In this document: piece after piece, positions 13,579-43,217 of the stretch
Layout of the letters: each line of letters starts with the position of its first letter
Numbering within the stretch: the stretch's first letter is position 1
DNA from: Thermoanaerobaculia bacterium
GTDB taxonomy: Bacteria > Acidobacteriota > Thermoanaerobaculia > Multivoradales > UBA5704
Reading direction: 5' to 3'
DNA: 64,000 nt
Assembly: GCA_035949675.1 (NCBI GenBank)
Contig: DASZHY010000092.1
Location: 3,851 to 67,850 of the forward strand
Program-made: the position numbers and the translations under genes
The notes under the pieces: model-generated
The model's database searches: none
Seen by the model: only the letters and a program-made list of their open reading frames with translations
Told to the model about the DNA's origin: nothing

Positions 13579-13608
13579 AGGGGTGACGTGCCCAAGGAGC
13601 CATCGATC

Positions 13609-15009
13609 ATGCACATAAACCGTGTTTCATCCCCGAGGCGGCTCGCCGCTTTCGGCATCGTTTTCGCGCTGGCGCTCGCTCTCGCGCCGGCATCCCATGC
13701 AGCGAACCACGACGTCAGTGCCACCGCATCGTTGACCTTCGAGCCGGCCAACCTCACGATCAAGGTCGGCGATTCGGTGACCTGGACCAACTCGAGCGGC
13801 GTGAATCACAACGTGGCCGCGAACGACGGCAGCTTCCGCTGCGCCAGCGGTTGCGACGGCGACGGCCACGGCGGCAACGGCAACCCGGCGGGCAGCTGGA
13901 CGTTCACGCGGACCTTCAACCAGCCCGGCACCATCAACTACCTGTGCGAGGTCCACGGCGGCCCTCCCATCTCCATGGTGGGCTCGATCGTGGTGCAGGG
14001 CAGCGCCGCTTCTCCGGGCAGCCTGGACTTCAGCACTGCCGCCGACAGCGTCGCCGAGAACGCCGGCACCGCTCATCTCACCGTCAACCGCAGAGGCGGC
14101 AGCTCGGGGGCGGTGAGCGTCCACTTCGCCACCAGCGACGGCACCGGCGTGGCCGGCAAGAACTACGTCGCGACCTCCGGCACGCTCAACTGGGCCGCCG
14201 GCGACACGGCGGCCAAGACAATCAACGTCGCGGTGCTCGACGACGGCGTTGCGGACGGCGGCCACACCGTCAACCTGACGCTCAGCGCGCCCCAGGGCGG
14301 GGCAAGCCTGGGAACGCCGTCCGCCATCGTGCTCACCATCACCAACACCGACGGCGGCACGGGCGGTGCGCCCGCCGCGCCCTCGAACCTGGCGGCGGCC
14401 AGCGCCGGCACCACCGCCATCAATCTCACCTGGAAGAGCAACTCCAGCAACGAGACCGGCTTCCGCGTGCAGAGCAAGGTGCTCGACGGCAGCCCGTTCC
14501 AGGACGTCCTGCCGCTCTCCCCGGCGGGCAGCACGGGCACCGCTGTAACCGGCTTGCAGCCGGCGACCGGCTACGGGTTCCGGGTGCGCGCGGAGAACGC
14601 GGCCGGCAACTCGGCCTACACCACCGAGGCCGACGCCGCCACCGACACGACGCCCGGCACCTGCGTCGCCGACGCCAACACCCTCTGCCTCGGCGGCCGT
14701 TTCAAGGTCAGCGTTGCCTGGGCGACCAGCAACATGAGCGGCGTGGGGACCACGGTGCCGCTGGCCGCCAACCCGGACTCGGGGCTGTTCTACTTCTTCG
14801 CGTCGAGCAACATCGAGATGCTGATCAAGGTGATCAACGGCTGCGGGCTCAGCAACACCTACTGGGTCTTCTTCGCCGCCACCACCAACGTGCAATTCAC
14901 GGTCACCGTGGTCGACGTCACGACCGGCAAGACCAAGGTGTACTTCAATCCGCTCAACCAGGCCGCGGTGCCGGTGCAGGACACCAACGCCTTCGCCACC
15001 TGCCCCTGA
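13609..15009 (+). CDS. Secreted multidomain protein: type-1 copper cupredoxin + 2 Calx-beta + FN3 + conserved C-terminal domain ending CP
   Basis: Signal peptide present. The cupredoxin region holds ligands His (NHNV), Cys/His (YLCEVHG) and Met (SMVG). Calx-beta motifs are VHFATSDGTGVAGKNY...NVAVLDDGVADG. The FN3 domain is INLTWKSN...YGFRVRAENAAGNS. The C-terminal domain of about 130 aa is shared with 28212..29957 and 61954..62883. Confidence 0.7.
   Translation: MHINRVSSPRRLAAFGIVFALALALAPASHAANHDVSATASLTFEPANLTIKVGDSVTWTNSSGVNHNVAANDGSFRCASGCDGDGHGGNGNPAGSWTFTRTFNQPGTINYLCEVHGGPPISMVGSIVVQGSAASPGSLDFSTAADSVAENAGTAHLTVNRRGGSSGAVSVHFATSDGTGVAGKNYVATSGTLNWAAGDTAAKTINVAVLDDGVADGGHTVNLTLSAPQGGASLGTPSAIVLTITNTDGGTGGAPAAPSNLAAASAGTTAINLTWKSNSSNETGFRVQSKVLDGSPFQDVLPLSPAGSTGTAVTGLQPATGYGFRVRAENAAGNSAYTTEADAATDTTPGTCVADANTLCLGGRFKVSVAWATSNMSGVGTTVPLAANPDSGLFYFFASSNIEMLIKVINGCGLSNTYWVFFAATTNVQFTVTVVDVTTGKTKVYFNPLNQAAVPVQDTNAFATCP
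14233..15009 (+). repeat. Copy 1 of a ~777-bp dispersed repeat (near-identical from about 14330 onward), matching 29181..29957
   Basis: Side-by-side reading of the two gene 3' halves shows only scattered substitutions across the FN3 and C-terminal-domain coding DNA. Identity stops right after the stop codons. Confidence 0.8.
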
Positions 15010-16358: not shown

Positions 16359-17534
16359 ATGGGGGCCATGCCCGTGCCTCTGGTTCGATTGACGGCGCTG
16401 CTCCTCGCCGCCGCCGTGGCCTGCGTCTCGGCGCCGCCCTCCCGAATTGCGGCAAAGAAGCCCGCGGCACTACCCGCCCCGGAGGCAGCCCCTGGCTCCC
16501 CTCCTGCGCCCGGCCAGGCGACGGCCACCGTTCCGACGGCGCCCGCCCCCGCCGTTGCCGCCGCGGCAGCCGCCCCTTCCTCCCCCGTCCACCCCCTGCG
16601 CGCCAGTGTCCCGGCGTTCGGCGGCACCCTGGAGATCGAGGTCCGCGACCTGCCCCGCGAGGCGGCGGATGCCGCCATTCAGGCTGCCGCCGTCGAGGTG
16701 GGAGAGATGGAGCGGCTGACCGATCCCCGCGGTCCCGGCGGCGAGCTGGCGCTGCTCAACGCCGCCGCCGGCAAGGGACCGCGCCGAGTCGACCCTCGTC
16801 TCTTCGCGGCGCTGGTCCGCGCCCGCGACTTCTGCCTCTGGTCCGAGGGCAAGGAAGGGCCGCTCGCCGGCGCTCTCCACCGCCTCTGGGGCCGCGGCAC
16901 CGGCGAGGCGCTGGCGGCCACCCCGTCGCCGGACGACCTGCGCCAGGCAGTCGCCGCCGCCGGCTGCAAGAACCTCACCGTGGACGCCAAGCAGCAGACC
17001 GCCGCCCTCGCCACCGGCAGCGTCCTCGACCTCGTCGACTTCAGCACCGGCATGGCCGTCGACCGCGCCATCGAGGTCCTGCGCCAGCACGGTTCGGCCA
17101 ACGCCTTTATCCAGATCCGCGAGGTCCGGCGCGGCATCGGCGCCGGCCGCGCCGGCCGTGGCTGGATGATCGAGCTGCCCGCCATGGGCGGCCTCAAGGA
17201 GCCCTTGGGCCGCATCTTCTTGCGCGACCAGTCGCTGGCGGCCGCCCTGCGTGATGACGATCCTCTCGACGTCGGCGGCCGGCGTCTCACTCACTTCATC
17301 GATCAGCGCAGCGGCCAGCCAGCCGAGGAAGGCGTCTTCGCCATCTTCGCGGTCACCGAGCTCGCCGTCGACGCCCAGGCCCTGGCCGCCACCATGTCCA
17401 TCACCGGCGCCCAGGAAGGCGAGATGCTGACCGGCTCCATCCGACCCCGCCCCTCCCTCCTCTGGCTCATGGGCACCGGCACCGGCTCGCCCGTCCTGGT
17501 CGACTACCGCTGGACCGAAGTGCCCAAGCGCTGA
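16359..17534 (+). CDS. apbE: FAD:protein FMN transferase (ApbE family) lipoprotein
   Basis: Signal peptide with lipobox AAAVAC. ApbE-like core LDLVDFSTGMAVDRAIEVLRQHG...FIDQRSG is present. Confidence 0.7.
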   Translation: MGAMPVPLVRLTALLLAAAVACVSAPPSRIAAKKPAALPAPEAAPGSPPAPGQATATVPTAPAPAVAAAAAAPSSPVHPLRASVPAFGGTLEIEVRDLPREAADAAIQAAAVEVGEMERLTDPRGPGGELALLNAAAGKGPRRVDPRLFAALVRARDFCLWSEGKEGPLAGALHRLWGRGTGEALAATPSPDDLRQAVAAAGCKNLTVDAKQQTAALATGSVLDLVDFSTGMAVDRAIEVLRQHGSANAFIQIREVRRGIGAGRAGRGWMIELPAMGGLKEPLGRIFLRDQSLAAALRDDDPLDVGGRRLTHFIDQRSGQPAEEGVFAIFAVTELAVDAQALAATMSITGAQEGEMLTGSIRPRPSLLWLMGTGTGSPVLVDYRWTEVPKR

Positions 17535-28183: not shown

Positions 28184-28211
28184 TTGGATGACGTCCTCAG
28201 GAGGCATCGAC

Positions 28212-29957
28212 ATGTGTAATTACCGTGCTTCGTCCCCGGTGCGGCTTGCCGCTCTCGCCATCGTTCTCGCCGTCAGCGTGGTGCCGGTCTGCCAGGCGAC
28301 GACCCACAACGTGAGCGCCACCTCGTCTCTCTCCTTCGTACCGGCCAACATCACGATCAACGTCGGCGATTCGGTGACCTGGACCAATACCACCGGCGGC
28401 TACTACATGCACAACGTGGTCGCGGACGACGGCAGCTTCCGCTGCGCCAACGGCTGCGACGGCGACGGCCACGGCGGCAACGGCAACCCGGCGACCACCT
28501 GGACCTTCACGCTGACCTTCAACCAGGCCGGCACCGTCAATTACCACTGCGAGGTCCACGGCGGCCCCCCCTACTACATGATGGGCTCGATCACGGTGCA
28601 GGGCGCCTCGACCCCGGGGACGCTCGGCTTCACCACCGCCGCCTACAGTCAGGCCGAGACCGGCGGCCATGCCACCATCACCTTGCAGCGCACCGGCGGC
28701 AGCAGCGGCACCGTCGGCGTCGACTACGCGACCAGCAGCGGCACGGCGGTCGCCGGCACCAACTACACGCCGGCTTCCGGGACCCTCACCTGGGCCGCCG
28801 GGGACACTTCCCAGAAGAGCTTCAACGTGCCGGTGATCGACGACGGCGTCCAGGACGGGACCCACACCGTCAACCTGACGCTCAGCAATGCCACCGGCGG
28901 CGCCTCCGTGGGGCAGGCGTCGGCGGTCCTGTCGATCACCGACAACGACAAGCCCGCCGCCGCCGGCAGCCTGGCGTTCAGCGCCGCCGCCTACAGCGTT
29001 GCCGAGAACGCCGGCACCACCTCGATCACCGTCAATCGCAGCGGCGGCAGCTCGGGGGCGGTGAGCGCCCACTACGCCACCAGCAACGGCACCGGCATGG
29101 CCGGCAAGCATTACACCGCGACCTCCGGCACTCTCAACTGGGGCGCCGGCGACTCGGCGGCCAAGACGTTCAGCGTCGCCGTGCTCGACGACGGCGTCGC
29201 GGACGGCAACCATACGGCCAACCTGACGCTCAGTGCGCCCCAGGGCGGGGCCAGCCTGGGAACGCCGTCCACCGCCGTGCTCACCATCACCAACACCGAC
29301 GGCGGCACGGGCGGTGCGCCCGCCGCGCCCTCGAACCTGGCGGCGGCCAGCGCCGGCACCACCGCCATCAATCTCACCTGGAAGAGCAACTCCAACAACG
29401 AGACCGGCTTCCGCGTGCAGAGCAAGGCGCTCGACGGCAGCCCGTTCCAGGACGTCCTGCCGCTCTCCCCGGCGGGCAGCACGAGCAGCACCGTCACCGG
29501 CCTGTTGCCGGCGACCGGCTACGGGTTCCGGGTGCGCGCGGAGAACGCCGCTGGCGCCTCGGCCTACACCACCGAGGCCGACGCCGCCACCGACACGACG
29601 CCCGGCACCTGCGTCGCCGACGCCAACACCCTTTGCCTCGGCGGCCGTTTCAAGGTCAGCGTTGCCTGGGCGACCAGCAACATGAGCGGCGCGGGGACCA
29701 CGGTGCCGCTGGCCGCCAATCCGGACTCGGGGCTGTTCTACTTCTTCGCGTCGAGCAACATCGAGATGCTGATCAAGGTGATCAACGGCTGCGGGCTCAG
29801 CAACACCTACTGGGTCTTCTTCGCCGCCACCACCAACGTGCAGTTCACGGTCACCGTGGTCGACGTCACGACCGGCAAGACCAAGGTGTACTTCAATCCG
29901 CTCAACCAGGCCGCGGCGCCGGTGCAGGACACCAACGCCTTCGCCACCTGCCCCTGA
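28212..29957 (+). CDS. Secreted multidomain protein: cupredoxin + 3 Calx-beta + FN3 + conserved C-terminal domain (paralog of 13609..15009)
   Basis: Signal peptide present. The cupredoxin site is MHNV...YHCEVHGGPPYYMMG. Calx-beta repeats read VDYATSSGTAVAGTNY and AHYATSNGTGMAGKHY. The last 770 bp are near-identical to 14233..15009. Confidence 0.7.
   Translation: MCNYRASSPVRLAALAIVLAVSVVPVCQATTHNVSATSSLSFVPANITINVGDSVTWTNTTGGYYMHNVVADDGSFRCANGCDGDGHGGNGNPATTWTFTLTFNQAGTVNYHCEVHGGPPYYMMGSITVQGASTPGTLGFTTAAYSQAETGGHATITLQRTGGSSGTVGVDYATSSGTAVAGTNYTPASGTLTWAAGDTSQKSFNVPVIDDGVQDGTHTVNLTLSNATGGASVGQASAVLSITDNDKPAAAGSLAFSAAAYSVAENAGTTSITVNRSGGSSGAVSAHYATSNGTGMAGKHYTATSGTLNWGAGDSAAKTFSVAVLDDGVADGNHTANLTLSAPQGGASLGTPSTAVLTITNTDGGTGGAPAAPSNLAAASAGTTAINLTWKSNSNNETGFRVQSKALDGSPFQDVLPLSPAGSTSSTVTGLLPATGYGFRVRAENAAGASAYTTEADAATDTTPGTCVADANTLCLGGRFKVSVAWATSNMSGAGTTVPLAANPDSGLFYFFASSNIEMLIKVINGCGLSNTYWVFFAATTNVQFTVTVVDVTTGKTKVYFNPLNQAAAPVQDTNAFATCP
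29181..29957 (+). repeat. Copy 2 of the ~777-bp dispersed repeat (see 14233..15009)
   Basis: See copy 1. Confidence 0.8.
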
Positions 29958-30097
29958 GGCAGGACCAAGGCGCCGAACCGCCAAATCCTTCTCTCGCGAA
30001 CCGCGAGCCGCGACGCCGGACACCCGGCGCCGCGGCCGCGGCCGCTTACGTCGCCATCCACCGGTGGCGCTCCACTGAGCTGCAGGCCCGCGGCGTT

Positions 30098-31171
30098 TCA
30101 GGGGGACGGCGGGCTGACCGCCGGAGGCGCGCCGCCGGCCGGTGACGGCTGACAGCAGCCCTCGCCCTCCGGGGCGATGGGGCGGCCGTGGGGACAGACG
30201 GTCGGGTGGCCCAGGAAGGCGCAGACCTGGTCCTCGAAGCCGGCGGCGACCGGGGCAGCGCGGCCGCACTGGGGGGCGACGGCCCCGGGGGCAAGGGTCC
30301 TGGCCAGCAGGGCTTCGGCGAGGCGGACGCGGCGGACGGCGGCGGCGGCCTGGGCGCGCCCGCGGTCGGTGAACGCGATGCGGCCGTCGGCGAACGCCAG
30401 CAGACCTTGAGCGAGGAGATCGGCGATGCCGCGGGCGGTGACCGGCACCGGGCGGCCGTCTTCGGCGAGCGCGCGCCACAGATCCACCAGGACGGCTTGC
30501 AGCTCGGCGGCGCCGGGGTCCTCGAGGCGGGCGAGACGGCCGTGCTCGAGCCGGATCTCGCGGCCGGCGCGGGCGGCGATCGACGGGTCGTGGGTGACCA
30601 GGATCAGGGTATGGCCGCGGCGGTTGAGGTCGGCAAGCAGCGTCATCACCACCGCCTCGTTGACCGCGTCGAGATTGCCGGTGGGCTCGTCGGCGAGGAT
30701 GAGGGGAGGCTGGTTGATCAGCGCCCGCGCCAGGCAGACGCGCTGCTGCTCGCCGCCGGAGAGCTGGCTGGGCAGATGGTCGAGGCGCCCGCCGAGGCCC
30801 ACCCGGCGCAACGCCTCCTCGGCCTCGCCGCGGTCGGTCGTGCTGTGGACGTACTGGGCCAGCATCACGTTCTCGAGCGCGTTGAGGTAGGGGATGAGGT
30901 GGAACTGCTGGAACACCAGCCCGACGGTCTGCTGGCGGTAGCGGGCCAGGTCGCGGCTGGCGAGGCCGGTCAGGTCGAGGCCGCCGACCCGCACCCTGCC
31001 GGACGACGGGCGGTCGAGGCCGGCGAGGACGTTGAGCAGGGTGGTCTTGCCCGAGCCCGAGGGCCCGGTGACCGCCACCCATTCGCCTTCGGCGACGGCG
31101 AGCGACAGCTCGTCGAGCGCCAGCAGCGACCCGAAGCGGCGGCTCAAGCTCTCGATCTCGACCAGCGGCAT
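30098..31171 (-). CDS. ABC transporter ATP-binding protein (MacB/LolD-type) fused to a C-terminal DtxR/MntR-like HTH and metal-binding domain
   Basis: The N-terminus reads MPLVEIESLSRRFG...GPSGSGKTTLLNVLAGL...LSGGEQQRVCLARAL...ILADEPTGNLD. The C-terminal 130 aa resemble DtxR, with RRVRLAEALLARTL and ...FLGHPTVCPHGRPIAPEG matching RKHRLAERLL and ...NPTTSPFGNPIPG. Confidence 0.65.
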   Translation of the reverse strand: MPLVEIESLSRRFGSLLALDELSLAVAEGEWVAVTGPSGSGKTTLLNVLAGLDRPSSGRVRVGGLDLTGLASRDLARYRQQTVGLVFQQFHLIPYLNALENVMLAQYVHSTTDRGEAEEALRRVGLGGRLDHLPSQLSGGEQQRVCLARALINQPPLILADEPTGNLDAVNEAVVMTLLADLNRRGHTLILVTHDPSIAARAGREIRLEHGRLARLEDPGAAELQAVLVDLWRALAEDGRPVPVTARGIADLLAQGLLAFADGRIAFTDRGRAQAAAAVRRVRLAEALLARTLAPGAVAPQCGRAAPVAAGFEDQVCAFLGHPTVCPHGRPIAPEGEGCCQPSPAGGAPPAVSPPSP

Positions 31172-31182
31172 GGCTCGCTCCG

Positions 31183-32046
31183 TCACTCCCCGCGCAGCAC
31201 CACGGCCGCGTCCAGCCGTCCGATCCGCCGCAGCGCCACCGCCAGCGAGGCTCCCACCACCAGCACCGCCATCGCCGCGGCTGCGGCCAGACCGTTCCAG
31301 GTCAGGTTGGGCCCCCCGGCGCCGCCCAGCAGGTGGCGTTCGAGGCCGCCGGCCGCGACCTCTCCCAGCAGCTCGCCGGCCAGCGCGGCCAGCAGCGCCG
31401 CGGCGAGCAGCTCGACGGCGAGCATGCCCCCGACGCGCCGCGGCGAGTAGCCCAGCGCCAGCATCAGGCCGACCTCGACCCGGCGCTCGCCGATCAGGGC
31501 CGCGGTGGCGGCGCCGACCGACACCAGCGCCAGCAGGAAGGAGACGCCGCTGACCGCCAGCAGCACCAGGGTCAGGCGGTGGATCACGCGCGCGTCGGAA
31601 GCGCTGGTCTTGCGGAGCGGCGTCGCCTCGACCCCTTCGATCCGCTCCTCGATGGCCTTTGCCACCTCCCCCAACCGGGCCGGCTCGGCGCGCACCTCCA
31701 GGCGCGCGTACTGCATCGCCGCGCCGCCGCCGGGACCGCCGCCGGGACCGCCGCCGGGGCCGCCGCCGGGGCCGCCGTAGGCCGGCCCGGACACCGCAAG
31801 CACTCCGGGGATCTGCCGTACCCGCGCCGCCGCCGCGAGCGGGATGCCGGCCGCCGCCCCGACCTGCGGGCGCACCACGAGGTTGGGGCCGAAGGCGGCC
31901 AGGCCCGCGCCCACCCGGGCGCCGGCGCGCGCCGAGAAGCCGGCGAGCGTCGCCACGGTCGCCGCCGCCACGATCACCGCGGCCAGGATCAGGGCCAGCT
32001 GCCGCGGCCGCCGCCGCAGGCTGGCGAGCACCAGGCGCGCGATCAC
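31183..32046 (-). CDS. ABC transporter permease, FtsX-like (short)
   Basis: A GTG start overlaps the upstream stop (GTGA). The N-terminus VIARLVLASLRRRPRQLALI is FtsX-type. There is a GGPGGGPGGGPGGGPGGG loop insert. Confidence 0.55.
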   Translation of the reverse strand: MIARLVLASLRRRPRQLALILAAVIVAAATVATLAGFSARAGARVGAGLAAFGPNLVVRPQVGAAAGIPLAAAARVRQIPGVLAVSGPAYGGPGGGPGGGPGGGPGGGAAMQYARLEVRAEPARLGEVAKAIEERIEGVEATPLRKTSASDARVIHRLTLVLLAVSGVSFLLALVSVGAATAALIGERRVEVGLMLALGYSPRRVGGMLAVELLAAALLAALAGELLGEVAAGGLERHLLGGAGGPNLTWNGLAAAAAMAVLVVGASLAVALRRIGRLDAAVVLRGE

Positions 32047-33410
32047 GCGGTGGCCCGCTTGAGCAGCGCCGCCGGGTAGCGGCCGAGCGCCCGCGAGACC
32101 GGCGGCGCGCTGGCGAGGACGGCCACGACCAGCCCGAGCAGGACCGCGAACGGCAGCAGCACCGGCTCTGGCTGCACCTCGATGCCCAGCGCGCCCGCGC
32201 CCAGCAGGCGGCCGGCGACGAGGCCAAGGCCGCCGCCCAGCAGCCCGCCGAGGCCGCCGAGCAGCGCCGCCTCGAGCAGGAAGAAGGTCACCACCCGCCG
32301 GCGGGCGGCGCCGATCGCCACCATCAACGCGGCCTCCAGCCGCCGCTCCAGCACCGTGGCGGTCATCGCCGCGGTGACCCCCACCGCGGCGCCGACCAGC
32401 GCCACCACGGCCAGCGCCAGCAGCACGACGCGCAGCTTGCCCAGGACGGCGGCGGTGGCGGCGGTCACGCCGGAGACCACCCGCGCCTCCGCCTCGGGGA
32501 GCGCCTGGCGCAGCTGGAACGCGACCGAGGACGGGTAGGCCGTGCAGTACCACTTCTCGTATTCCCGCGGCGTCATGAGGCGCGGATCGCGCACGTTGCC
32601 GCTCTCGGGATTGGTCTGGGCGAAGATCTCGGCGCGCACGAACCGGCCCGGCAGCCCGGCCAGGCGCGACACCACCGCCAGCGGCACGAACGCCTGCTCG
32701 TCCTCCTCGCCGCCGCTGGTGACGATCCCGGTCACCGCCAGCAGCACGGACCGCTCCCCGAGCGCCGCCCGCAGACGGCCGCCGGCGCCGAGATGGAGCC
32801 GCGCCGCCAGGCGCCGGCCCAGCACCGCCTCGGCGCCGTCCGCCGCGGCGGCGCCGACCGCCGGCGCCCGACCTCCTGCGGCCGCGCCTGCCGTCGCGGC
32901 GCCGCTCGCGCCCGCGAGATCGTCATGGGGCCAGCGCCCGGCCACCTGCAGCGTCGGCCGGGTGGCCGGCAGGCCAGTCCGGAAGCCGCTCTCGAGCGGA
33001 TAGTGGAACCAGGTGCCGATCACTTCCGCGATCACGTCAGGCGGCGCGGCAGCGGCGCCGGTGGCAGCAGCGCCGGCGGCAGCAGCGCCGGCATCTGGCG
33101 ACAAGCGCGGCGACAGGCGCAGGCGCAGGCGCAGCGGATAGAGCGGCGCCAGGGCGACGATGTTGTTGCGCCAGAAGATCCGCCGCACCGCCGCCAGCCG
33201 CGCCGCCGCCAGCGTTTCGCGCCCCGGCCCGGGCACCAGCTCGAGGTTGGCGCCGTAGGAGGCGAGCTCCGCCGCGACGCGATCGCCCGACGCCAGCATC
33301 ACCTCGCCGAGCGCGGTCGCGCCCAGCGTTCCAAGCGCCACGGCGGTCACCGCCAGCAGCTTGCGGCGGGTGCCGTGGCGGAGCGACTCGAGCAGCAGGC
33401 GGGCGTACAT
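32043..33410 (-). CDS. ABC transporter permease, FtsX/MacB-like
   Basis: MYARLLLESLRHGTRRKLLAV...FVPLAVVSRLAGLPGRFVRAEIF.... The C-terminal TM bundle resembles the FtsX fold. Confidence 0.6.
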   Translation of the reverse strand: MYARLLLESLRHGTRRKLLAVTAVALGTLGATALGEVMLASGDRVAAELASYGANLELVPGPGRETLAAARLAAVRRIFWRNNIVALAPLYPLRLRLRLSPRLSPDAGAAAAGAAATGAAAAPPDVIAEVIGTWFHYPLESGFRTGLPATRPTLQVAGRWPHDDLAGASGAATAGAAAGGRAPAVGAAAADGAEAVLGRRLAARLHLGAGGRLRAALGERSVLLAVTGIVTSGGEEDEQAFVPLAVVSRLAGLPGRFVRAEIFAQTNPESGNVRDPRLMTPREYEKWYCTAYPSSVAFQLRQALPEAEARVVSGVTAATAAVLGKLRVVLLALAVVALVGAAVGVTAAMTATVLERRLEAALMVAIGAARRRVVTFFLLEAALLGGLGGLLGGGLGLVAGRLLGAGALGIEVQPEPVLLPFAVLLGLVVAVLASAPPVSRALGRYPAALLKRATA

Positions 33411-33442
33411 GCAGCTGGCGGCCTCGGTAGCGGTCCTGGCGT

Positions 33443-34810
33443 CTACATCGCGTGATGCGGCGCCGCCGCCGCGGGCGAGCCGCCGAATTGCGGCAGGCCC
33501 GCCGCCAGGTCCGCGGCTCGCACCACCAGGACGTCGCCGTCGCGGCGCGACGGCAGCGGGATCGGGTTGCAGCCGCCGCGCTGGCCGATGCTGGGCGGGT
33601 AGATGGTCGAGCCGCAATGCAGGCAGGTGATGTTGCCGCCCTCCTGGTAATAGCCCTTGGCGCCGCAGATCTCGCAGGCGTCGAAGGCCGTCGCGATCGT
33701 CGTCGAGGGCTTGCGCGGGTCGTCCAGGGGCACGGCGATGAAGCGCACCACGCTGCCCCGGCCCCCTCCGAGCGTCACCGCATAGCGCCGCAGCGCCGTG
33801 CTGCCCTGGAAGTCGGCGAGCGGGAGCCGCACCGCTCCGTCGGCGCCGACCTGCGCCGGCATGGCCGGCGACAGCGTGGCCGGCGGCCGCGAGTAGACGA
33901 ACCCCAGGCCGAGGGCAGCCAGGATCGCCACTCCCAGGCTGCCGCCCCAGACGCGCGCCCGCGCCTGCCTATCCGCCGCCGCGCGCTCCAGGCGGGCCGC
34001 CGCGCCAGGGGCCGCCGCGGCGGGCGGTGCCGCGCCGAGCGCGCCACCCGTCGCCGCGCCCGCACCGGCCGCGGGGGCGCCGCGGCCGGGCACCAGCAGC
34101 ATCAGCAGCGGCAGCGCCAGCACCGCCACGATGAAGAAGAGCTCGTTCTTGACCAGGGGGCCGATGGCGGCCATCGAGGACTGGTTGGCAGGCAGCCAGC
34201 CCGCCTCGGCCAGCTCGTGATAGCCGTTGACCAGCAGCTGGGCGACGAAGATCAGCAAGGCGATGCCGGTGATCTTGAAGAAGCGCCCGAGATCGACCCG
34301 CAGGCTGCCGCGTACGAACAGCACGCCGAAGACGAAGGCGGCGGCGAGGCCGGCCAGCACCCCCAGCAGGGTCGCCAGGCCGCCGCTGGTCAGCGACAGC
34401 GCCGACAGGAACAGCACCGTCTCCATGCCTTCGCGGAAGACCATCAGGAAGGTGAACAGGAAGATTCCGGCGGCGACCGCGGCGGCCCGCTCGCGCGTCA
34501 GGATGCGCGCCAGCGTGCCCTTCATCTCGCCGGAGAGGGCCTTGCTGTGCCGCCACATCCACACCAGCACCGAGCCGACGACCGCTGCCGCGGCAAGGTA
34601 AAGGAACCCTTCGAGCACGTTCTCGTCGACCGTCAGCCGGTGCAGCAGGTACCCGCCCAGCAGGCTGGCGCCGATCGCCGCGACGATGCCCGCCCACACC
34701 GCGCCCAGGTGGCGGCCGGCCGCCTCCCGCCGCAGGAAGGCGGCGATGATGCCGACCACCAGGGCCACCTCGACCCCTTCGCGGAGGGTCACGACCAGGG
34801 CTTCAAACAT
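33443..34810 (-). CDS. High-affinity iron permease FTR1/EfeU family fused to a C-terminal Cys-rich DUF2318-like domain
   Basis: Two RExxE motifs are present (REGVEVALVV, FREGMETVLF). The C-terminal region reads FDACEICGAKGYYQEGGNITCLHCGST...GGCNP. The start overlaps the fur stop. Confidence 0.7.
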   Translation of the reverse strand: MFEALVVTLREGVEVALVVGIIAAFLRREAAGRHLGAVWAGIVAAIGASLLGGYLLHRLTVDENVLEGFLYLAAAAVVGSVLVWMWRHSKALSGEMKGTLARILTRERAAAVAAGIFLFTFLMVFREGMETVLFLSALSLTSGGLATLLGVLAGLAAAFVFGVLFVRGSLRVDLGRFFKITGIALLIFVAQLLVNGYHELAEAGWLPANQSSMAAIGPLVKNELFFIVAVLALPLLMLLVPGRGAPAAGAGAATGGALGAAPPAAAAPGAAARLERAAADRQARARVWGGSLGVAILAALGLGFVYSRPPATLSPAMPAQVGADGAVRLPLADFQGSTALRRYAVTLGGGRGSVVRFIAVPLDDPRKPSTTIATAFDACEICGAKGYYQEGGNITCLHCGSTIYPPSIGQRGGCNPIPLPSRRDGDVLVVRAADLAAGLPQFGGSPAAAAPHHAM

Positions 34811-35276
34811 GGCTGCCGGCGCCCTGGTCCGTCGCCGCCGCCGCCGTCTGGGCGCAGCCCTGACAGAGGCCGTTGATCTGCAGGCTGTAGGCGCTGGGAT
34901 CGAAGCCATGAGCGCGGCAGATCGCCGCCTGCAGCGCGGCGATGCCGGGGCTCAGGAACTCCACCACGCGGCCGCAGACAGTGCACACCAAGTGATCGTG
35001 CCGCTGCCCGCCATGAACGTGCTCATAGAGATAGCGCCGGCGTCCGAGCCGCTGCTTGCGCGCCAGCCCGCTCGCCACCAGCAGGTCCAGGTTGCGGTAG
35101 ACCGTGGCGCGTGAGATCTTCAGGCCGCGCTCACGCGCCGCCGCCAGCAGCTGTTCGGCGTCGATGTGGCCGTGCTGGCGGAAGACCTCGTCGAGCAGGG
35201 CGAGCCGCTCGCCCGTCACCCGCTGCCGGCGCTCCCTGAGGAAGGTCAGGAAGAGCTCTTTTTCTCGATCCGCCAT
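34803..35276 (-). CDS. fur: Fur-family transcriptional regulator
   Basis: LRERRQRVTGERLALLDEVF...HDHLVCTVCGRVVEF...CQGC shows the Fur DNA-binding helix and CxxC metal sites. Confidence 0.85.
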   Translation of the reverse strand: MADREKELFLTFLRERRQRVTGERLALLDEVFRQHGHIDAEQLLAAARERGLKISRATVYRNLDLLVASGLARKQRLGRRRYLYEHVHGGQRHDHLVCTVCGRVVEFLSPGIAALQAAICRAHGFDPSAYSLQINGLCQGCAQTAAAATDQGAGSHV

Positions 35277-35334
35277 CTGATCTCGAAACCCGGGTAAGGT
35301 CGCCTTGGCACCGTCGCACCGCCGTCACCACGCC

Positions 35335-35357
35335 CTATTGAGACTCCATCTCAATAG
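35335..35357. promoter_or_regulatory. Perfect palindrome CTATTGAGA-ctcca-TCTCAATAG upstream of fur; candidate Fur-family operator
   Basis: Read directly. It lies 60 nt upstream of the fur start codon and is followed by the direct repeat AGACTCCAT. Confidence 0.4.
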
Positions 35358-35556
35358 TAGACTCCATTCTGGACTGATACGGTCCTGTTTGTCAACGGGA
35401 CTCCCGCTCGCCCGTTCGTCGACCGCCATCCACAGGGCGGGCAGGACCGGCTGATAACTGATAAGTGGAGCGCACCGGTGCTACACTGCCATCCCGCCAT
35501 TTTGCCTGGGACGCAGGCCCACACCCGCTCTCGCCAAAGGAGTTTGCCTCGAGACC

Positions 35557-36810
35557 ATGAGTGAACCGGCGCGCTCGACGACCGACTTTCAGATCGCCTC
35601 CGAGCAGTTCGACATCGCCAGCGAGATCATGGGATTGCGCGATGAGCTGCGCGTCCTGTTGAAGACGCCCTTCCGCGAGATGCGCGTCGCCGTGCCGATC
35701 CGCCGCGATGACGGCACCGGCGCGGTCTTCGTCGGCTATCGCGTCCAGCACAACGGCGCGCGCGGTCCCTGCAAGGGCGGCATCCGCTACCATCCCGACG
35801 TCGATTTCTACGAGATCCGCGCGCTCGCCGCGCTGATGACCTGGAAGACCGCGCTGATGGACATCCCGTTCGGCGGCGCCAAGGGCGGCGTGGCATGCAT
35901 CCCCTGGGAGATGAGCACCGGCGAGCTCGAGCGGCTGACCCGCAAGTTCATCCAGCGCATCTCGATCATCCTCGGCGTCAACCGCGACATCCCGGCGCCG
36001 GACATGTACACCAATGCCCAGACGATGGCCTGGATCATGGACCAGTACGGGCGCAAGAACGGTTACACCCCCGCCGTCGTCACCGGCAAGCCGCTCGAGA
36101 TCGGCGGCTCCCAGGGACGGGAGGCGGCCACCGGCCGCGGCACCATCTTCGTGCTCGAGCACGTGGCCCGCGAGTGGGGAGTCGATCCCGCCGGCGCGAC
36201 CGCCGCCATCCAGGGCTTCGGCAACGTCGGCGCCTTCGCCGCCCGCTTCTTCCATGAGCTGGGCGGCAAGGTGGTCGCGGCCTCGGACATCAACGGCGGC
36301 CTCCACGACCCGCAGGGACTCGACGTGCCGGCGCTGCTCGCGCACGTGGCGCGCCATCGCACCATCGCCGGCTTCCCGCAGGGCAAGGCGATCACCAACG
36401 AGGAGATCCTCACCGTTCCCTGCGACTTCCTCATCCCCGCCGCCCTGGGCGGCGTGATCAACCGCCGCAACGTCGACCAGGTGCGTGCCCGCTTCGTGAT
36501 CGAGGGCGCCAACGCGCCGACCACTCCGACCGCCGACCAGAAGCTGGCCGAGCGCGGCGTCATCGTCGCTCCCGACATCCTGGTCAACGCCGGCGGCGTC
36601 ACCGTCTCCTACTTCGAGTGGGTGCAGAACCTGCAGCAGTTCTACTGGGACGAGGAGCAGGTCAACCGCGAGCTCGCCAAGCGCATGGAGCGGGCCTGGG
36701 GAGAGGTGCTCGAGGTCCACAAGCAGCGGCAGGTGGACCTGCGGCGCGCCGCCTACCTGATCGCCATCGACCGGGTGGCCAGGGCCGAGAGCCTGCGCGG
36801 CTTCGAGTAG
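35557..36810 (+). CDS. gdhA: Glutamate dehydrogenase (Glu/Leu/Phe/Val dehydrogenase family)
   Basis: KGGIRYHPDVDFYEIRALAALMTWKTALMDIPFGGAKGG plus the Rossmann motif GFGNVGAFAARFF. Confidence 0.9.
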   Translation: MSEPARSTTDFQIASEQFDIASEIMGLRDELRVLLKTPFREMRVAVPIRRDDGTGAVFVGYRVQHNGARGPCKGGIRYHPDVDFYEIRALAALMTWKTALMDIPFGGAKGGVACIPWEMSTGELERLTRKFIQRISIILGVNRDIPAPDMYTNAQTMAWIMDQYGRKNGYTPAVVTGKPLEIGGSQGREAATGRGTIFVLEHVAREWGVDPAGATAAIQGFGNVGAFAARFFHELGGKVVAASDINGGLHDPQGLDVPALLAHVARHRTIAGFPQGKAITNEEILTVPCDFLIPAALGGVINRRNVDQVRARFVIEGANAPTTPTADQKLAERGVIVAPDILVNAGGVTVSYFEWVQNLQQFYWDEEQVNRELAKRMERAWGEVLEVHKQRQVDLRRAAYLIAIDRVARAESLRGFE

Positions 36811-38253: not shown

Positions 38254-39420
38254 TCAATGCTCCCGCAACAGCTCCGTGATCGGCCGGCGGGCGGCGCGCC
38301 AGGCTGCCGGGAAGCCACCCACCACCCCGGTGCCGAGCGCCAGCAGCACCCCCATGCCCAGGATCCACGGCGCCGTGCGCAGGGTGAAGGCGATCTCGCT
38401 GAAGGTGACGCCGTTCATGGTCGCCGCGGTGATGCCGTTGAGCGGCAGCGCCAGCAGGCTGCCGGCCACCCCTGCCACCAGGCCGAGCACCGCCGCCTCG
38501 ATCATGAAGGCGAGCAGGATGGTGTGGCGGCGGAAGCCCAGTGCGCGCAGGGTGCCGATCTCGTGGCTGCGCGCCGACACCTGCGCGAACATCGTGTTGG
38601 CGGCGGCAAAGCAGGCGCCGATCGCCAGGAACACCGCCAGCACGTTGCCCAGGATGATGAACTGCGCCGAGGCGACGTTGGCCTGCTCGGCGTAGTACTG
38701 CGGCTCCGCCAGCGCCGTGAGGTGCAGCTGCTGGTCGCCCTTGATGCGGGCGATCAGCGCCTGGGCGTCGTCGGGCGAGGCGGCGTGCAGGAGCGCCGAG
38801 GAGTAGTTGCTGATGCGGCGGAAGGCACCGTTGAGGTCGGCCACCGCCCCCCATACCTCGGATTCGAAGCTGCTGCCCCCGGCCTCGAAAATGCCGACCA
38901 CCCGGAAGGGGACGCGGCCGAAGTCGACGGTCGAGCCGAGCCGCAGGGCGGGATAGGCCGCCGCCAGCTTGCGGCCGACGATCACCTCGGCCTTGCCCGG
39001 CTCGAACCGCCGCCCGTCGATCAGGCGCACCTGCGGCCGGATGCCGAACGCGGCCGGCTCGACGCCGCGGATCGAGACGTTGGTCTCGCCGCCTCCCGCG
39101 CGCTTGAGGATCTGCAGGATCAGCGCCTGGCCGGCGGCCAGCGGCTGGCCCTGCGAGTCGTGGGCGATGCCCGGCAGCGACACCAGCAGACGCTCCTTGT
39201 CCTGGCCGAAGAAGCTCTCCACCTCGCTGCGGGCGCCGTCGCGCAGCACCACCACGTTGCTGGGGTCGCCGGCGGCGGAGAAGGCGGCGCGCAGCCCGCC
39301 GGCCATCGCCAGCACGCCGACGTACACCAGCACCACGAAGGCGATCGAGCCGATGGTCATCAGGGTCGTGCCTTTGCGCACGAACAGGCTGCGGACGTTG
39401 TACTTGAGCGGGATCTTCAT
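38254..39420 (-). CDS. ABC transporter permease, FtsX/LolE-MacB-like
   Basis: [30 protein letters not shown]...IGTLRALGFRRHTILLAFMIEAAVLG. There is an ATGA overlap with the upstream gene. Confidence 0.7.
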   Translation of the reverse strand: MKIPLKYNVRSLFVRKGTTLMTIGSIAFVVLVYVGVLAMAGGLRAAFSAAGDPSNVVVLRDGARSEVESFFGQDKERLLVSLPGIAHDSQGQPLAAGQALILQILKRAGGGETNVSIRGVEPAAFGIRPQVRLIDGRRFEPGKAEVIVGRKLAAAYPALRLGSTVDFGRVPFRVVGIFEAGGSSFESEVWGAVADLNGAFRRISNYSSALLHAASPDDAQALIARIKGDQQLHLTALAEPQYYAEQANVASAQFIILGNVLAVFLAIGACFAAANTMFAQVSARSHEIGTLRALGFRRHTILLAFMIEAAVLGLVAGVAGSLLALPLNGITAATMNGVTFSEIAFTLRTAPWILGMGVLLALGTGVVGGFPAAWRAARRPITELLREH

Positions 39421-40565
39421 GCCACCCTCCGCACCGCGTCGACGATCCGCAGGCGAGCGGCGCCGAACGCCGGCCCGGCCCCCGAGAGCAGCCCGATCCC
39501 GACCCCGATGGCGAGGCCGGTCGCCCAGTTGCCGCCGCTCATCCGCAGCGTGCCGAAGACCGGCATCACCTTGGCGAGCCCGGCCCCCACCGCCGGCAGC
39601 AATACGGCGCACAGGCCGCAGCCGAGGACAGCCCCCAGAACGCCCACCGCCAGCGACTCGCCGAGCACCAGACGCAGCAGCTGGCCGCGGCCGAAGCCGA
39701 GGGTCTTCAGCACGCCCACCTCGGCGGTGCGCTCGCGCGCCGCCATCGCCATGGTGTTGGCGGTGATGAAGAAGATCGAGATCACCGCCGCCAGGCCGAT
39801 CGCCGTGAACAGCAGCTTGACGTTGCCCATCATCTCGGCGAAGGAGAGCTGGAAGGCCTTCTCGGTCTCGGCCCGCACCTGGAACTCGGAGTTCTCGAAC
39901 TTCGCCTCGGCCGCCTTGCGCACCGCCACCTCGCTGGCCGGCGAATCGATGTGCAGCACGTAGGTGCCGATCAGGCCGCGCTTGCCGATCCCCTCTTCCA
40001 GGTACTGGCGCTGGAAGTAGACGACCTTCTCCGCGGCGGGGGTCCTGGGCTGGGTGAAGACGCCGCGCAGCACGAGATTGACGTCCATGGGATAGATGTC
40101 GCCCTTGATGAAGATCGAGTCGCCGATCTTCCAGCCGTATTTGGCGGCCAGCTGCTTGCCGGCCACGAAACCTCGGCGGTCGGCGGCCCAGGCCTGCAGC
40201 TCCTCGGGGCTGATCCGCAGCTCGGGGTAGACCTTGAACAGGGTCGCCGGATCGGCGGCGAAGCGCGGGACGAAGTTCTCCGGCCTTTCGTCCTTGTAGA
40301 CGCCCTGGAACCAGTTGAGTGGCGTCACCGCCTCGACGTGCGGCAGGGTCTCGATCTGGCGCCAGTACGCCTCAGGCAGGAGCGTCGCGAGCGAGATGGC
40401 GCTGCGCACGATGATGCGGTTGTCGGAAGCGCCCTCGGTCGACGCCAGCAGGTCGAGAAACGCCATCAGCAAGCTGAGCAGCAGCAGCGCGAACATCAGG
40501 CTCACGATGGTGAGCGTGGTGCGCAGCTTGTTGCGCAGCAGGTTGCGTAAAGCCAGTTTTTGCAT
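39417..40565 (-). CDS. ABC transporter permease, FtsX/LolC-MacB-like
   Basis: [29 protein letters not shown]...[22 protein letters not shown]. Confidence 0.7.
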
Positions 40566-40633
40566 CGTGTCTATTCTCCTGTCTTTCATCGGTGCCGCAG
40601 GCTCCAAGGGTGCCAGCTGGAGCCGATGAGGAC

Positions 40634-40755
40634 TACTCGAAGCGTCTATCGGGTCTCCCCCCTCGACCCTCGATCCCCTTCCCGGTCACTGAACCGCCGG
40701 GTCCCAACCCGGCGGTGCCGGGGGGGAAGGGGACGCCCCCTCCCCTCCGCTTCGG
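40634..40755. repeat. GC-rich intergenic repeat element, copy B, with a 36-bp insertion containing hairpin CCGCCGGGT-ccca-ACCCGGCGG
   Basis: See copy A. It lies between the permease start and the ATPase stop, inside the exporter operon. Confidence 0.75.
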
Positions 40756-40771
40756 CCATCTGTTGTTCTCT

Positions 40772-41449
40772 TCAAGCGGCGGCCAGCTGTCCCTTCTCGA
40801 GGTGCACCATGGTCCGCGCCCGCTCCGCGGCGCGCGGGTCGTGGGTCACCATCACGATGGTCTTGCCGAACTGGCGGTTGAGCTCGACCAGCAGGTCGAG
40901 CACGTCTTCGGCGCTCTTGGCGTCGAGGTCGCCGGTCGGCTCGTCCGCCAGCAGCAGGGTCGGGTCGGTGACGATCGCACGGGCGATCGCCACCCGCTGC
41001 TCCTGGCCTCCCGACAGCTGCCTGGGAAAGTGGTCCATGCGGTCGGCGAGCCCGACCACCCCCAGCGCGGTCTCGGCCTTGACCTTGCGCTGCGCCCGCG
41101 ACAGGCGGGTGAGGGTGAGCGGCAGCTCGACGTTCTCGAACGCGGTGAGCACCGGGATGAGGTTGTAGAACTGGAAGATGAAGCCGATGCTGCGCCGGCG
41201 CCAGACGGCGAGGTCGCTCTCCGACAGCCTGCCGATGTCCTGGTCGGCCACCTTCACCTCGCCCGACGTCGGGCGGTCGATGCCGGCCAGCAGGTTGAGC
41301 AGCGTGCTCTTGCCGGAGCCCGACGGCCCCATCAACGCGACGAAATCGCCGGCCGCCACCTGCAGGTTGACGCCCTGTAGCACCTTGATCAGAAAGTCGT
41401 CGCGACGGTAGGTCTTGACGACGTCTCGCACTTCCACGACGTTGCTCAT
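40772..41449 (-). CDS. ABC transporter ATP-binding protein (MacB/LolD family)
   Basis: [23 protein letters not shown]...[16 protein letters not shown]...[11 protein letters not shown]. Confidence 0.85.
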
Positions 41450-41509
41450 GTTTGCGCAGTCTCCTCCCATGGTCCGCCCTCCGGGCGGTGAAGCTGGTCT
41501 CAGCCCTTC

Positions 41510-42850
41510 TCATGTCTCCGCGGCTCGGACCTTCTGTCCATCCTCGAGCTTCTCGACGCCGGAGCGGACGATCGTCTCGCCGCCATTGACTCCTGACACC
41601 ACTTCCACGCGGTCGCTCGCCGCGGCGGCGGAGCCGCCGGCATTCGTCGCTCCGGCACCAGCCCCGGCGCCGCTCGCGGCCCTGGCCGGGCTGGCAGGGG
41701 CCAGCGCCACCTCGGTCCGCCGCAGGCGGCCGTTCACGACCTTGAACACGAACGCGGCGCCGCCCTCCTGGCGCACCGCGCTGCGCGGCACGAAGAGCTT
41801 GGGCTTGGCGGCGAGCGCCGCGCGGTCGATGCCGGCGCCGAGGAAGGTCACGGTCGTGCTCATGTCGGGGACCAGCCGCTCGTCGGCGTCGTCGACCGTC
41901 ACCTTGACCAGCACCACCGCCTTGGCGCGGTCGGCAGTCGGCACGATCTGGCGCAGCTTGCCGTGGTAGACCCGGTCGGGCACGGCGTCGATCTTGATCT
42001 CGGCCGGCTGGCCGCGCTTCAAGCGGGCGATGTAGCTCTCGTTGATGTCGGCCTCGACCTCGAGCGAGCGCGGGTCGGCGATGCGCACGATGGAGCCGGT
42101 CGATTGCTGGCTGGTAAAGCCGCCAGGTGCCACCATCTCCCCCACCAGCACGTTCTTCTGGATCACCACGCCGGTCAGCGGCGAGCGGATGACGGTGTAG
42201 GAGAGCTGCGCCTCGGACGAGCGCAGCCGGGCCTCGGCGGTGCCCACCTGGGCTGCCGCCACCGCCTCCTGGGTGCGGGCGGCGTCGAGCGTCGCTTGCG
42301 GCGACGCACCGGCGGGGACCAGCTTCTCCTGGCGGCCGCGCTCGCGGCTGGCGTCGGCGAGCTTGGCCTTGACTTCCGCCAGCGCCGCCCGGTTCTGGTC
42401 GATGGCGGCGCGCAGGTCGGCGCTGTCCAGCACCGCGATGACATCGCCCTGTTTCACCTGGTCGCCCTCGTCGACGCGCAGCTCGACCACCCGGCCGATG
42501 ATCTTGGCGCCCACCGCCGCCCGCTCGCGCGCGTAGGTGTAGCCGGTCGCGGTCAGCACCGTCGAGGCCTCGGTGGGGGTCACCACCTGCACGGTGGTGG
42601 TCTCCACGCGCGGCAACAGGAACGGCGCCGGCGCCAGGAAGGCCCAGGCGGCCGCGGCGCCGGCGGCGGCCAGGGCGACGAGCCAGCCGATCCAGCCGCG
42701 GCGGGGCCGGTACTCGAGATCGTCCGGGGCCATCCGCAGCGCCGTGAGGTCCGGCCGCGGGCCGCGTTCGCGCGCGGCCGCGGCTCCGCCCGTCGCCGGC
42801 CGCGGCGCTCCCTGCTCGTCGGCCGCGGGCCGCACGGGCAGGGTGCCCAT
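41510..42850 (-). CDS. Periplasmic adaptor/membrane fusion protein (HlyD/MacA family)
   Basis: An N-terminal TM helix, coiled-coil region and beta-barrel (YTVIRSPLTGVVIQKNVLVGEMV). The start is chosen at the internal Met MGTLPV. Confidence 0.7.
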   Translation of the reverse strand: MGTLPVRPAADEQGAPRPATGGAAAARERGPRPDLTALRMAPDDLEYRPRRGWIGWLVALAAAGAAAAWAFLAPAPFLLPRVETTTVQVVTPTEASTVLTATGYTYARERAAVGAKIIGRVVELRVDEGDQVKQGDVIAVLDSADLRAAIDQNRAALAEVKAKLADASRERGRQEKLVPAGASPQATLDAARTQEAVAAAQVGTAEARLRSSEAQLSYTVIRSPLTGVVIQKNVLVGEMVAPGGFTSQQSTGSIVRIADPRSLEVEADINESYIARLKRGQPAEIKIDAVPDRVYHGKLRQIVPTADRAKAVVLVKVTVDDADERLVPDMSTTVTFLGAGIDRAALAAKPKLFVPRSAVRQEGGAAFVFKVVNGRLRRTEVALAPASPARAASGAGAGAGATNAGGSAAAASDRVEVVSGVNGGETIVRSGVEKLEDGQKVRAAET

Positions 42851-43217
42851 GCGGCATTCCCCTGAGGGCTCTCCGCTGGTCGCCAGTCGCGGCACTCCCT
42901 GCTTGTCGGCGGGCTTGACCTGGGTTTCGAGCTCACTGCTCACGAGAAGCCTCCTTTGACTTGTGGATCGCGCGGCGTCGGCCGGCGTCGCGTCGCCCGG
43001 CGGCGTCCGGCGCCGTCCGGCGCCGTCCGGAGCCAGGCCGCGGCGGCGCCGCCCGGAGCCAGGCCGGCCGCGGCTCCGCCTGTCGCCTGTCGCGGCACTC
43101 CCCGCTCGTCGCGGCGGCACCACGCCACTCTACGGGGACCCGGCTTGGGAGTTGCGGCTCAGTGCCCCGCCATCCTCTCAGCGCGCTGAGCATGCTGAGC
43201 GTGCTGAGCGTGGGCGG

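Follow-up and report, generated by a model that had tools for sequence, protein, structure and literature searches.

A predicted P19-free variant of the Fet iron-uptake system in Acidobacteriota, with an FTR1-DUF2318 fusion and an ABC ATPase that carries a DtxR-derived tail

Five genes in a compact operon

We analyzed a five-gene operon on the minus strand (35395..30098) of a contig from a Thermoanaerobaculia bacterium (Acidobacteriota), within a window that is the whole 64-kb stretch of DNA under study. The operon encodes, in order, a Fur-family regulator, an FTR1 permease fused to an FtrD-like/DUF2318 domain, two FtsX permeases and an ATP-binding cassette (ABC) ATPase with a C-terminal extension, and this gene order, which a first-pass annotation had read from the sequence alone, is borne out by Pfam matches at the positions listed below. 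The G+C content of the region is about 75%, so that the longest open reading frames (ORFs) extend beyond the true starts; gene starts were set from the Pfam matches, from conserved N-termini and from the gene calls of a near-identical contig (L087; comparison loci and proteins are cited by our L and P numbers). Lengths are given in nucleotides (nt) and amino acids (aa).

35395..35366, minus strand: promoter-like site, TTGACA, 18-nt spacer, CAGAAT (10 of 12 matches)
35335..35357, no strand: perfect 9-5-9 palindrome CTATTGAGA-N5-TCTCAATAG, presumed operator (one match in the region, 0 in 100 shuffles)
35276..34803, minus strand: Fur-family regulator, 157 aa (PF01475, E=1.7e-23)
34810..33443, minus strand: FTR1 permease fused to an FtrD-like/DUF2318 domain, 455 aa (PF03239, E=4.9e-36; PF10080, E=8.9e-22)
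33410..32043, minus strand: FtsX/MacB-type permease 1, FetB-like, 455 aa (PF02687, E=9e-15)
32046..31183, minus strand: FtsX permease 2, FetC-like, 287 aa, GTG start (PF02687, E=4e-11)
31171..30098, minus strand: ABC ATPase with C-terminal extension, 357 aa
31171..30530, minus strand: nucleotide-binding domain of the ATPase, LolD/MacB/FetD type, aa 1-214 (PF00005, E=7e-35)
30508..30152, minus strand: DtxR-derived tail of the ATPase, aa 222-340, with a vestigial winged helix, a long dimerisation helix and a Cys/His-rich HPTVCPHGRPIAPEGEGCC end
30151..30098, minus strand: Pro/Ala-rich end of the ATPase, the last 17 codons and the stop, unconserved in the alignment

The reading frames overlap at the two junctions where overlaps had been reported: the fur stop and the FTR1 start share 8 nt (ATGTTTGA), and the two permease genes share 4 nt (GTGA), an overlap that is also present in the JGI gene calls of L087. 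The remaining gaps between genes of the operon are 32 and 11 nt.

Both fusions are genuine and abundant in databases

One alternative is that the two fusions join separate genes as artefacts of assembly or of frameshifting, the latter having been named by the first-pass annotation itself. A contig from another sample (L087, JGI Ga0599171_0000019) is 97.7% identical to the window over the operon and encodes fused ORFs of the same lengths, with 3 residue differences in the ATPase and 4 in the FTR1 fusion, and orthologues at 46-86% identity retain both fusions in frame. The ATPase-tail ORFs of L002 and L089 are intact at 353 and 351 aa, their FTR1-FtrD ORFs measure 426 and 430 aa, and both fusions also occur in L004-L008 and L010. 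What could be held in favor of an artefact is that the genes of L001 are split into many pieces and that some database entries consist of the tail alone. We rejected both as evidence against the fusions, since frameshifts run through every gene of the L001 assembly, the stand-alone tail P0008 is truncated where its contig stops (L003), and the stand-alone tail P0016 lies within the intact 353-aa ORF of L002 and is an annotation omission. The near-identical strain and the in-frame orthologues rule the artefact out for practical purposes, and we give it a negligible probability.

A search for the same fusions in other genomes, proposed at the outset, returned each of them in at least 120 clusters. 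A full-length profile search with the ATPase gave at least 120 clusters, all of those listed carrying PF00005 and PF02742 at 358-404 aa under generic names, and the FTR1-DUF2318 fusion likewise occupies at least 120 database clusters, all of those listed carrying both Pfam domains, under the NCBI name 'Fe-S-containing protein'. The informative organism names of the ATPase-tail clusters (Acidobacteriia, Ca. Acidoferrum, Ca. Solibacter, Ca. Polarisedimenticolia and Thermoanaerobaculia) all belong to the Acidobacteriota, one further cluster being labelled only 'bacterium'. A scan of species-representative genomes listed 600 stretches, mostly ordinary ABC ATPases, with at least four full-length fusions among them, and gives no measure of distribution. 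In the Terriglobia/Acidoferrum loci (L004-L008, L010), the system takes the form of a cassette of four genes that has both fusions but neither P19 nor fur; in Acidobacteriia loci (L004 9099..9482; L005, L006 9353..9745), the gene after the fusion ATPase is a small one of the GBBH-like_N/DUF971 type (PF06155). An uncultured Acidobacteriota contig (L036) carries an FTR1-FtrD fusion (96..1346, minus strand) about 5.7 kb from a tail-less LolD-type ATPase on the opposite strand, an arrangement from which the two fusions may not always travel together.

The annotation had regarded an ATPase joined to a DtxR-type domain as an undescribed architecture. We found no paper on such an ATPase or on an FTR1-DUF2318 fusion in a full-text search whose coverage leaves out most subscription journals and is no proof of absence. 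The architecture is not rare, however, and both fusions are abundant in databases under generic names, in a system that is itself of the known Fet/P19-Ftr1 kind.

The FTR1 permease carries a DUF2318 domain, predicted to be periplasmic

The fusion protein starts at the ATG at 34810 (MFEALVV) and not at the longest-ORF start at 34909. Both domains that had been placed in this one gene are present, PF03239 covering aa 1-204 and PF10080 aa 340-442. The FTR1 part keeps both REXXE motifs (REGVE at aa 10 and REGME at aa 126) and matches the NCBIfam EfeU model at E=3e-43, under its cut-off, and the DUF2318 domain contains the Cys motif CxxC-x13-CxxC-x14-C at aa 379-414 (33569..33676). Hydropathy analysis shows seven segments and an eighth at aa 287-307. 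FTR1 proteins are oriented N-out, C-in, so that this additional transmembrane helix would place the Cys domain in the periplasm, and we infer that the DUF2318 domain of the fusion lies on the side where it is predicted in FetA too.

The two permeases that follow have FtsX domains. MacB_PCD was detected in the permease 1 orthologues of L002, L004 and L089, and the window's permease 1 gave no match to it at E≤0.1. Permease 2 contains a 12-nt tandem repeat (31724..31777, 4.5 copies, 97% match) that encodes (GGPG)n in a periplasmic loop; L087 has 8 residues fewer here and 10 fewer in the Ala-rich and Leu-Arg repeats of permease 1 (~33040..33140), indicating that repeat copy number varies in frame between strains.

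Relation to the Fet cluster and other known systems

The Fet cluster of Campylobacter jejuni encodes FetM (FTR1), FetP (P19), FetA (a DUF2318 membrane protein), the FtsX permeases FetB and FetC, the ATPase FetD, and thioredoxins or an FMN-binding protein, is conserved across phyla, and requires fetM, fetP and fetA-D alike for growth under iron limitation (PMC6083913, PMC10783030). Its DUF2318 protein (CJJ81176_1651/FetA) bears the motif CxxC-x13-CxxC-x14/15-C (PMC6083913). We predict that the acidobacterial operon is an iron-uptake system of this kind, a variant of FetMP-FetABCDEF (P19/Ftr1; Cj1660-1665) without P19 and thioredoxins. This assignment follows from the same DUF2318 Cys motif and from the nearest tail-less ATPases, which are the FetD of canonical clusters: the closest among the matches listed are 53-59% identical, come from Desulfovibrio, Brenneria, Pauljensenia and Veillonellaceae (L011, L014-L016), and sit in clusters ordered FetM, P19, FetA (DUF2318), FetB, FetC, FetD. 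The description of the operon as a fur-headed iron-uptake unit built from two fusion genes stands, but the assembly is a variant of a known system and not a new one.

The window operon and the Fet cluster share FTR1, the five-Cys DUF2318 motif at its published spacing, two FtsX permeases followed by a FetD-type ATPase, and, presumably, iron or Fur control at the 5′ end. They differ in that the window has FetM and the DUF2318 domain of FetA in one polypeptide, without the multi-transmembrane body and YHS domain of FetA, in that its FetD bears a DtxR-type tail, and in that fur lies inside the operon. A tblastn search with Brenneria P19 (FetP, PF10634; E≤1e-4) found no P19 in the 64-kb window or in the acidobacterial loci L001-L010 and did find it in L011 and L014-L016. 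In L002 (8264..11773) and L089 (11402..14863), the operon extends into a further set of genes, for ApbE, a porin-like protein (470 aa), an FMN_bind protein and a membrane protein (145-157 aa), a set predicted to form a flavin-based periplasmic redox arm like that of the FMN-binding variant of P19 clusters. The window itself has only a distant ApbE-like ORF (16359..17534).

With EfeUOB and FtrABCD, the operon shares an FTR1/EfeU-type permease with REXXE motifs, but it has none of the EfeO/EfeB or FtrA/FtrB/FtrD partners and has an ABC module and DUF2318 instead. With MacB-type (type VII) transporters it shares FtsX domains and a LolD/MacB-like ATPase, the best NCBIfam similarities of the nucleotide-binding domain being LolD, MacB and FtsE, all under their cut-offs; MacB_PCD was detected in the orthologous permease 1 proteins mentioned above. 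This architecture is typical of exporters and extractors, and the substrate of FetBCD is stated to be unclear (PMC10783030), which leaves room for an ABC module that exports a reductant, a chelator or a toxic metal species, with the DtxR-like tail as the switch for export, and that does not import iron. In C. jejuni, however, fetB, fetC and fetD mutants show iron-dependent growth defects like those of fetP mutants (PMC10783030), the ABC genes keep a strict linkage to FTR1 and DUF2318 in different phyla, and the operon is headed by fur. We consider export unlikely.

The ATPase tail derives from the DtxR family

The first-pass annotation had likened the C-terminus of the ATPase to a DtxR/MntR metalloregulator complete with helix-turn-helix, and the HMMER search it proposed divides that claim in two. 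The C-terminal family Fe_dep_repr_C (PF02742) was found well above its cut-off of 27 bits, at 37.2 bits in the whole ATPase and 40.7 bits on the tail alone, and a phmmer comparison of the tail with IdeR/DtxR structures (E~1e-6) aligned it to DtxR residues ~37-135; the tail retains an RRxRLAE dimerisation helix and a C-terminal CPxGxPI motif, and the NCBIfam DtxR and MntR models match it weakly. The DNA-binding domain Fe_dep_repress (PF01325), which had been expected as well, gave no match in the window tail at E≤10, nor at E≤1 in the related proteins P0181, P0107, P0163, P0019 and P0026.

An AlphaFold model of the window tail, built from 14 sequences, has an overall predicted local distance difference test score (pLDDT) of 70.8, rising to 87-93 for residues 11-70. 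It consists of one long helix, a loop at the position of helix 2, a 6-residue helix, a beta-hairpin, a long dimerisation helix and an ill-defined Cys-rich end (pLDDT 47-65). The best Foldseek match in the PDB is the DtxR/MntR-family protein DR2539, at E=0.019 and TM 0.40, and because such fold matches are weak, the DtxR assignment rests on sequence. The corresponding model of a Terriglobia protein (P0181, pLDDT 79.9) contains a fuller winged helix (H222-240, a short helix, H258-267 and a hairpin) and three helices of the dimerisation domain, and the window clade is short of some 17-20 winged-helix residues. The helix-turn-helix of the window tail is thus vestigial, with helix 2 missing in the model, and a DNA-binding helix-turn-helix is not supported, whereas the DtxR/MntR likeness of the dimerisation part holds.

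Compared with DtxR, IdeR and MntR, the tail has in common PF02742, the alignment to residues ~37-135 and the dimerisation helix, and tails of the wider family keep H79, E83, H98, C102, E105 and H106. It differs in not being free-standing, in the undetected PF01325, in having no SH3/FeoA third domain and in the loss of ligands in the window clade. Some fusion ATPases of 401-403 aa (P0107, P0214 and others) have in addition a linker insert at aa ~225-255 with a conserved C...CC (HFDTALHGPSHPLNCPLVNTGDCC), a second Cys cluster.

Metal ligands are nearly complete in the wider family and mostly lost in the window

To compare ligands, we used 66 fusion ATPases from outside the window's Thermoanaerobaculia clade and seven positions, M10, H79, E83, H98, C102, E105 and H106, which we take to be those of the DtxR ligands in the numbering of C. 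diphtheriae DtxR. Each line gives the position, its conservation among the 66 proteins and the residue in the window.

M10 position: His in 65 of 66; window Ala
H79: 64 of 66; window Val
E83: 66 of 66; window Glu
H98: 54 of 66; window Val
C102: 66 of 66; window Cys
E105: 66 of 66; window Ala
H106: 66 of 66; window Ala

Five of the seven positions are therefore replaced in the window tail, with only E83 and C102 left, and the tails of L002 and P0021 are degenerate in a similar way. Tails of the wider family also match PF02742 much better, at 83-101 bits. Despite the lost ligands, the tail of the window clade is, judging from the ratio of nonsynonymous to synonymous substitution (dN/dS), under purifying selection: we obtained 0.13-0.24 for the tail vs 0.10-0.16 for the nucleotide-binding domain, and 0.07-0.21 for the subregion of aa 269-340, values that are rough since synonymous sites are near saturation. 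For the last 17 residues of the ATPase, compared with L002 and L089, the ratio is about 1 or not computable where synonymous sites are saturated.

What persists in the degenerate clade, as in the wider family, is a set of Cys and His residues (ICxF, GHP, CPHG, CC). This raises the possibility that the window tail still senses metal or redox state and gates the ATPase through a non-canonical site made of C302, C317, H322, C326, H328 and C339/C340, binding an Fe-S cluster or Zn/Fe as thiolates in the manner of FeoC. In both groups, these residues show little or no variation, the low dN/dS of aa 269-340 falls on the region that contains them, and the pattern C-x7-CPHG-x-PIPPG-x-CC recurs in the feoB-linked stand-alone relatives described below. 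A four-Cys cluster is equally compatible with a structural zinc site, however, the Cys-rich end is the low-confidence part of the model, and P0021 and P0017/P0018 are without some of the conserved Cys, so that we regard a working non-canonical sensor in the window as doubtful.

A profile search for the tail among 1.84 billion representatives returned mostly DtxR-like proteins of ordinary length, and also the C-termini of other ABC ATPases of 350-400 aa. The closest stand-alone relatives, P0019 and P0026, combine Fe_dep_repr_C with FeoA, carry the CPHG...CC motif and the full ligand set, and have no PF01325 match; genes of this type lie directly downstream of feoB in both cases examined (loci L090-L093 2795..5654; L094). 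Since these relatives adjoin feoB, the DtxR subfamily of the tail appears to be an iron-transporter accessory rather than a classical repressor.

Two groups of transporters offer parallels. FeoC is a winged-helix protein with a Cys-bound Fe-S cluster, and FeoC and the DtxR_C-FeoA proteins resemble the tail as small winged-helix or DtxR-like, Cys-rich cytoplasmic modules on an NTPase-driven iron transporter, P0019 and P0026 sharing C-x7-CPHG-x-PIPPG-x-CC with it; but these Feo accessories are separate or fused to FeoA and have FeoB as partner, whereas the module in the window is fused to an ABC ATPase. The ATPases MetN (C2 domain), ModC and MalK have C-terminal regulatory domains and undergo trans-inhibition. 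Like them, the window ATPase has an extra, presumably dimer-forming cytoplasmic domain at the C-terminus of the nucleotide-binding subunit, placed to sense an intracellular, substrate-related ligand. The tail has a DtxR-type helical fold, however, and not ACT or TOBE, and the transporter is of the MacB/FtsX type VII and not a type I importer.

A promoter-proximal palindrome and a Fur-family regulator

The sigma-70-like site at 35395..35366 is the sole one in 29900..35600, where shuffled sequences give 0.1 expected, and L001 and L002 preserve the promoter-like block GTTGACAAACAGGACCG...GTCCAGAAT. The perfect 9-5-9 palindrome that the first-pass annotation had noted about 60 nt upstream of fur begins 9 nt past the -10 hexamer and 58 nt before the fur ATG, and its core, TTGAGA-N5-TCTCAA, occurs at the same position in L001 and L002. 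Because its position just after the promoter-like site is conserved, the palindrome, which would cover the transcription start, fits a presumed repressor operator. A search of the 64-kb window to define a regulon found no second copy.

The regulator has two CxxC pairs (CTVC, CQGC) that make up a structural Cys4 site, and an HVH...HDH cluster that corresponds to the His-rich regulatory site. Its gene is present in every Thermoanaerobaculia locus examined (the window, L001, L002, L087-L089) and absent from the flanks of loci with intact tails (Terriglobia/Acidoferrum).

The Terriglobia/Acidoferrum loci without an adjacent regulator gene have a conserved palindrome of their own, TAGTTGCAA-N5-TTGCAACTA, with the same 9-5-9 geometry as in the window. 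It lies at ~4218..4243 in L004 and ~4042..4067 in L005, is also found upstream of the FTR1-FtrD gene in L007, L008 and L010, and directly follows a promoter-like TTGAC-N17-TAAACT. Together with the fuller winged helix in the tails of these loci, it could be taken to mean that the tail is a DNA-binding repressor domain and that the ATPase doubles as a metal-dependent transcription factor acting on the promoter-proximal palindrome. Several observations speak against this: PF01325 is undetected in every member checked, the window tail lacks helix 2 and has a recognition helix of 6 residues, the ATPase should be held at the membrane by its transporter, the window has its own fur, and the closest stand-alone relatives of the tail are feoB operon partners and not obvious repressors. 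We consider a repressor function of the ATPase very unlikely.

A model for iron uptake and its control

The explanation that we favor on balance, with some confidence, is a P19-free Fet-type iron-uptake system in which the tail serves as metal feedback in the family at large, the tail of the window has decayed, and control is exerted on transcription by the Fur-family regulator. At the periplasmic DUF2318 domain, iron would be reduced or passed on, and it would then enter through FTR1, while the MacB-type (type VII) ABC module would perform ATP-driven conformational work on the periplasmic side, as has been proposed for FetBCD. Across the wider phylum, where its DtxR ligands are nearly complete, the tail most likely makes the ATPase depend on cytoplasmic Fe(II) or Mn(II), and by analogy with MetN and ModC, feedback could be of the trans-inhibition kind, through metal-dependent dimerisation of the tail. 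In the window clade, decay has affected the canonical sites as well as helix 2 of the winged helix; there, the tail is probably kept as a dimerising or clamping module, or a regulatory one, with its Cys/His cluster. Iron control in this clade would be mainly transcriptional, exerted by the Fur-family repressor, which would be co-transcribed and would bind the 9-5-9 palindrome that spans the transcription start.

Gating of transport by cytoplasmic metal, which the first-pass annotation had suggested for the window ATPase, thus fits the wider family, where the near-complete conservation of DtxR ligands (54-66 of 66 fusion ATPases at each position) supports it, but sits poorly with the window copy and its five replaced positions. 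There, the loss of most ligands and of one helix of the helix-turn-helix, together with a fur gene at the head of the operon, makes transcriptional control of iron uptake the probable one. More tentatively, we envisage that throughout the phylum the fully liganded DtxR tail might directly couple cytoplasmic Fe(II) to the activity of the MacB-type ABC module, a use of a DtxR domain for the control of a protein that may also apply to the DtxR_C-FeoA partners of FeoB; on this view, a later stage would be represented by the window, in which the sensor has decayed and an inserted fur gene has taken over.

A number of points weigh against the favored explanation. The palindrome, compared by eye and without scoring, shows no visible likeness to the classical E. 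coli Fur-box consensus, GATAATGATAATCATTATC, and the regulator falls between subfamilies, with NCBIfam Fur (57 bits), PerR (56) and Zur (47) all under their cut-offs. The association of fur with degenerate tails (four Thermoanaerobaculia lineages vs five loci with an intact tail and no fur) is suggestive at most, because it is probably a single evolutionary event. The confidence of the tail model is moderate and its fold match weak (pLDDT 70.8; E=0.019, TM 0.40), and a functional sensor site in the window tail could be built from the Cys/His residues that persist there. No thioredoxin (FetE/F) or FMN-binding gene lies beside the window operon, and a search of the window with the L089 FMN_bind protein gave no match. 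The role of FetBCD is stated to be unknown even in Campylobacter (PMC10783030).

The P19/Ftr1 uptake system matters for several pathogens, and the acidobacterial operons bear in several ways on the roles that FetA and FetBCD play in it. The FTR1-DUF2318 fusion argues for a DUF2318 domain that acts directly on the permease, and since the operons have no P19, the core machinery is apparently able to work independently of it. The joining of a DtxR-type sensor to the ATPase argues that ABC activity is tied to cytoplasmic metal status and points to a role for the DtxR fold beyond transcription; if true, the fully liganded tail would be a post-translational, transporter-borne iron sensor. The clades with intact and with degenerate tails provide natural mutants for testing what the tail does.

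Neighboring genes

A 589-aa secreted protein with cupredoxin (Copper-bind), Calx-beta and fn3 domains is encoded at 28188..29957 on the plus strand, convergent to the ATPase gene, and has a paralogue at 13570..15009 on the same strand. We considered it as an FtrB- or EfeO-like partner of the permease and rejected it on account of its convergent orientation, the paralogue elsewhere in the window and the ApbE and FMN_bind genes that take its place in relatives; since it is not kept beside the operon in relatives, it is probably unrelated to it. On the other side, beyond genes for citrate synthase and glutamate dehydrogenase, lies a second, ordinary MacB-type ABC system (~38254..43123, minus strand) with a periplasmic adaptor, a tail-less ATPase and two FtsX permeases, whose ATPase is 47% identical to the operon ATPase orthologue of L089.

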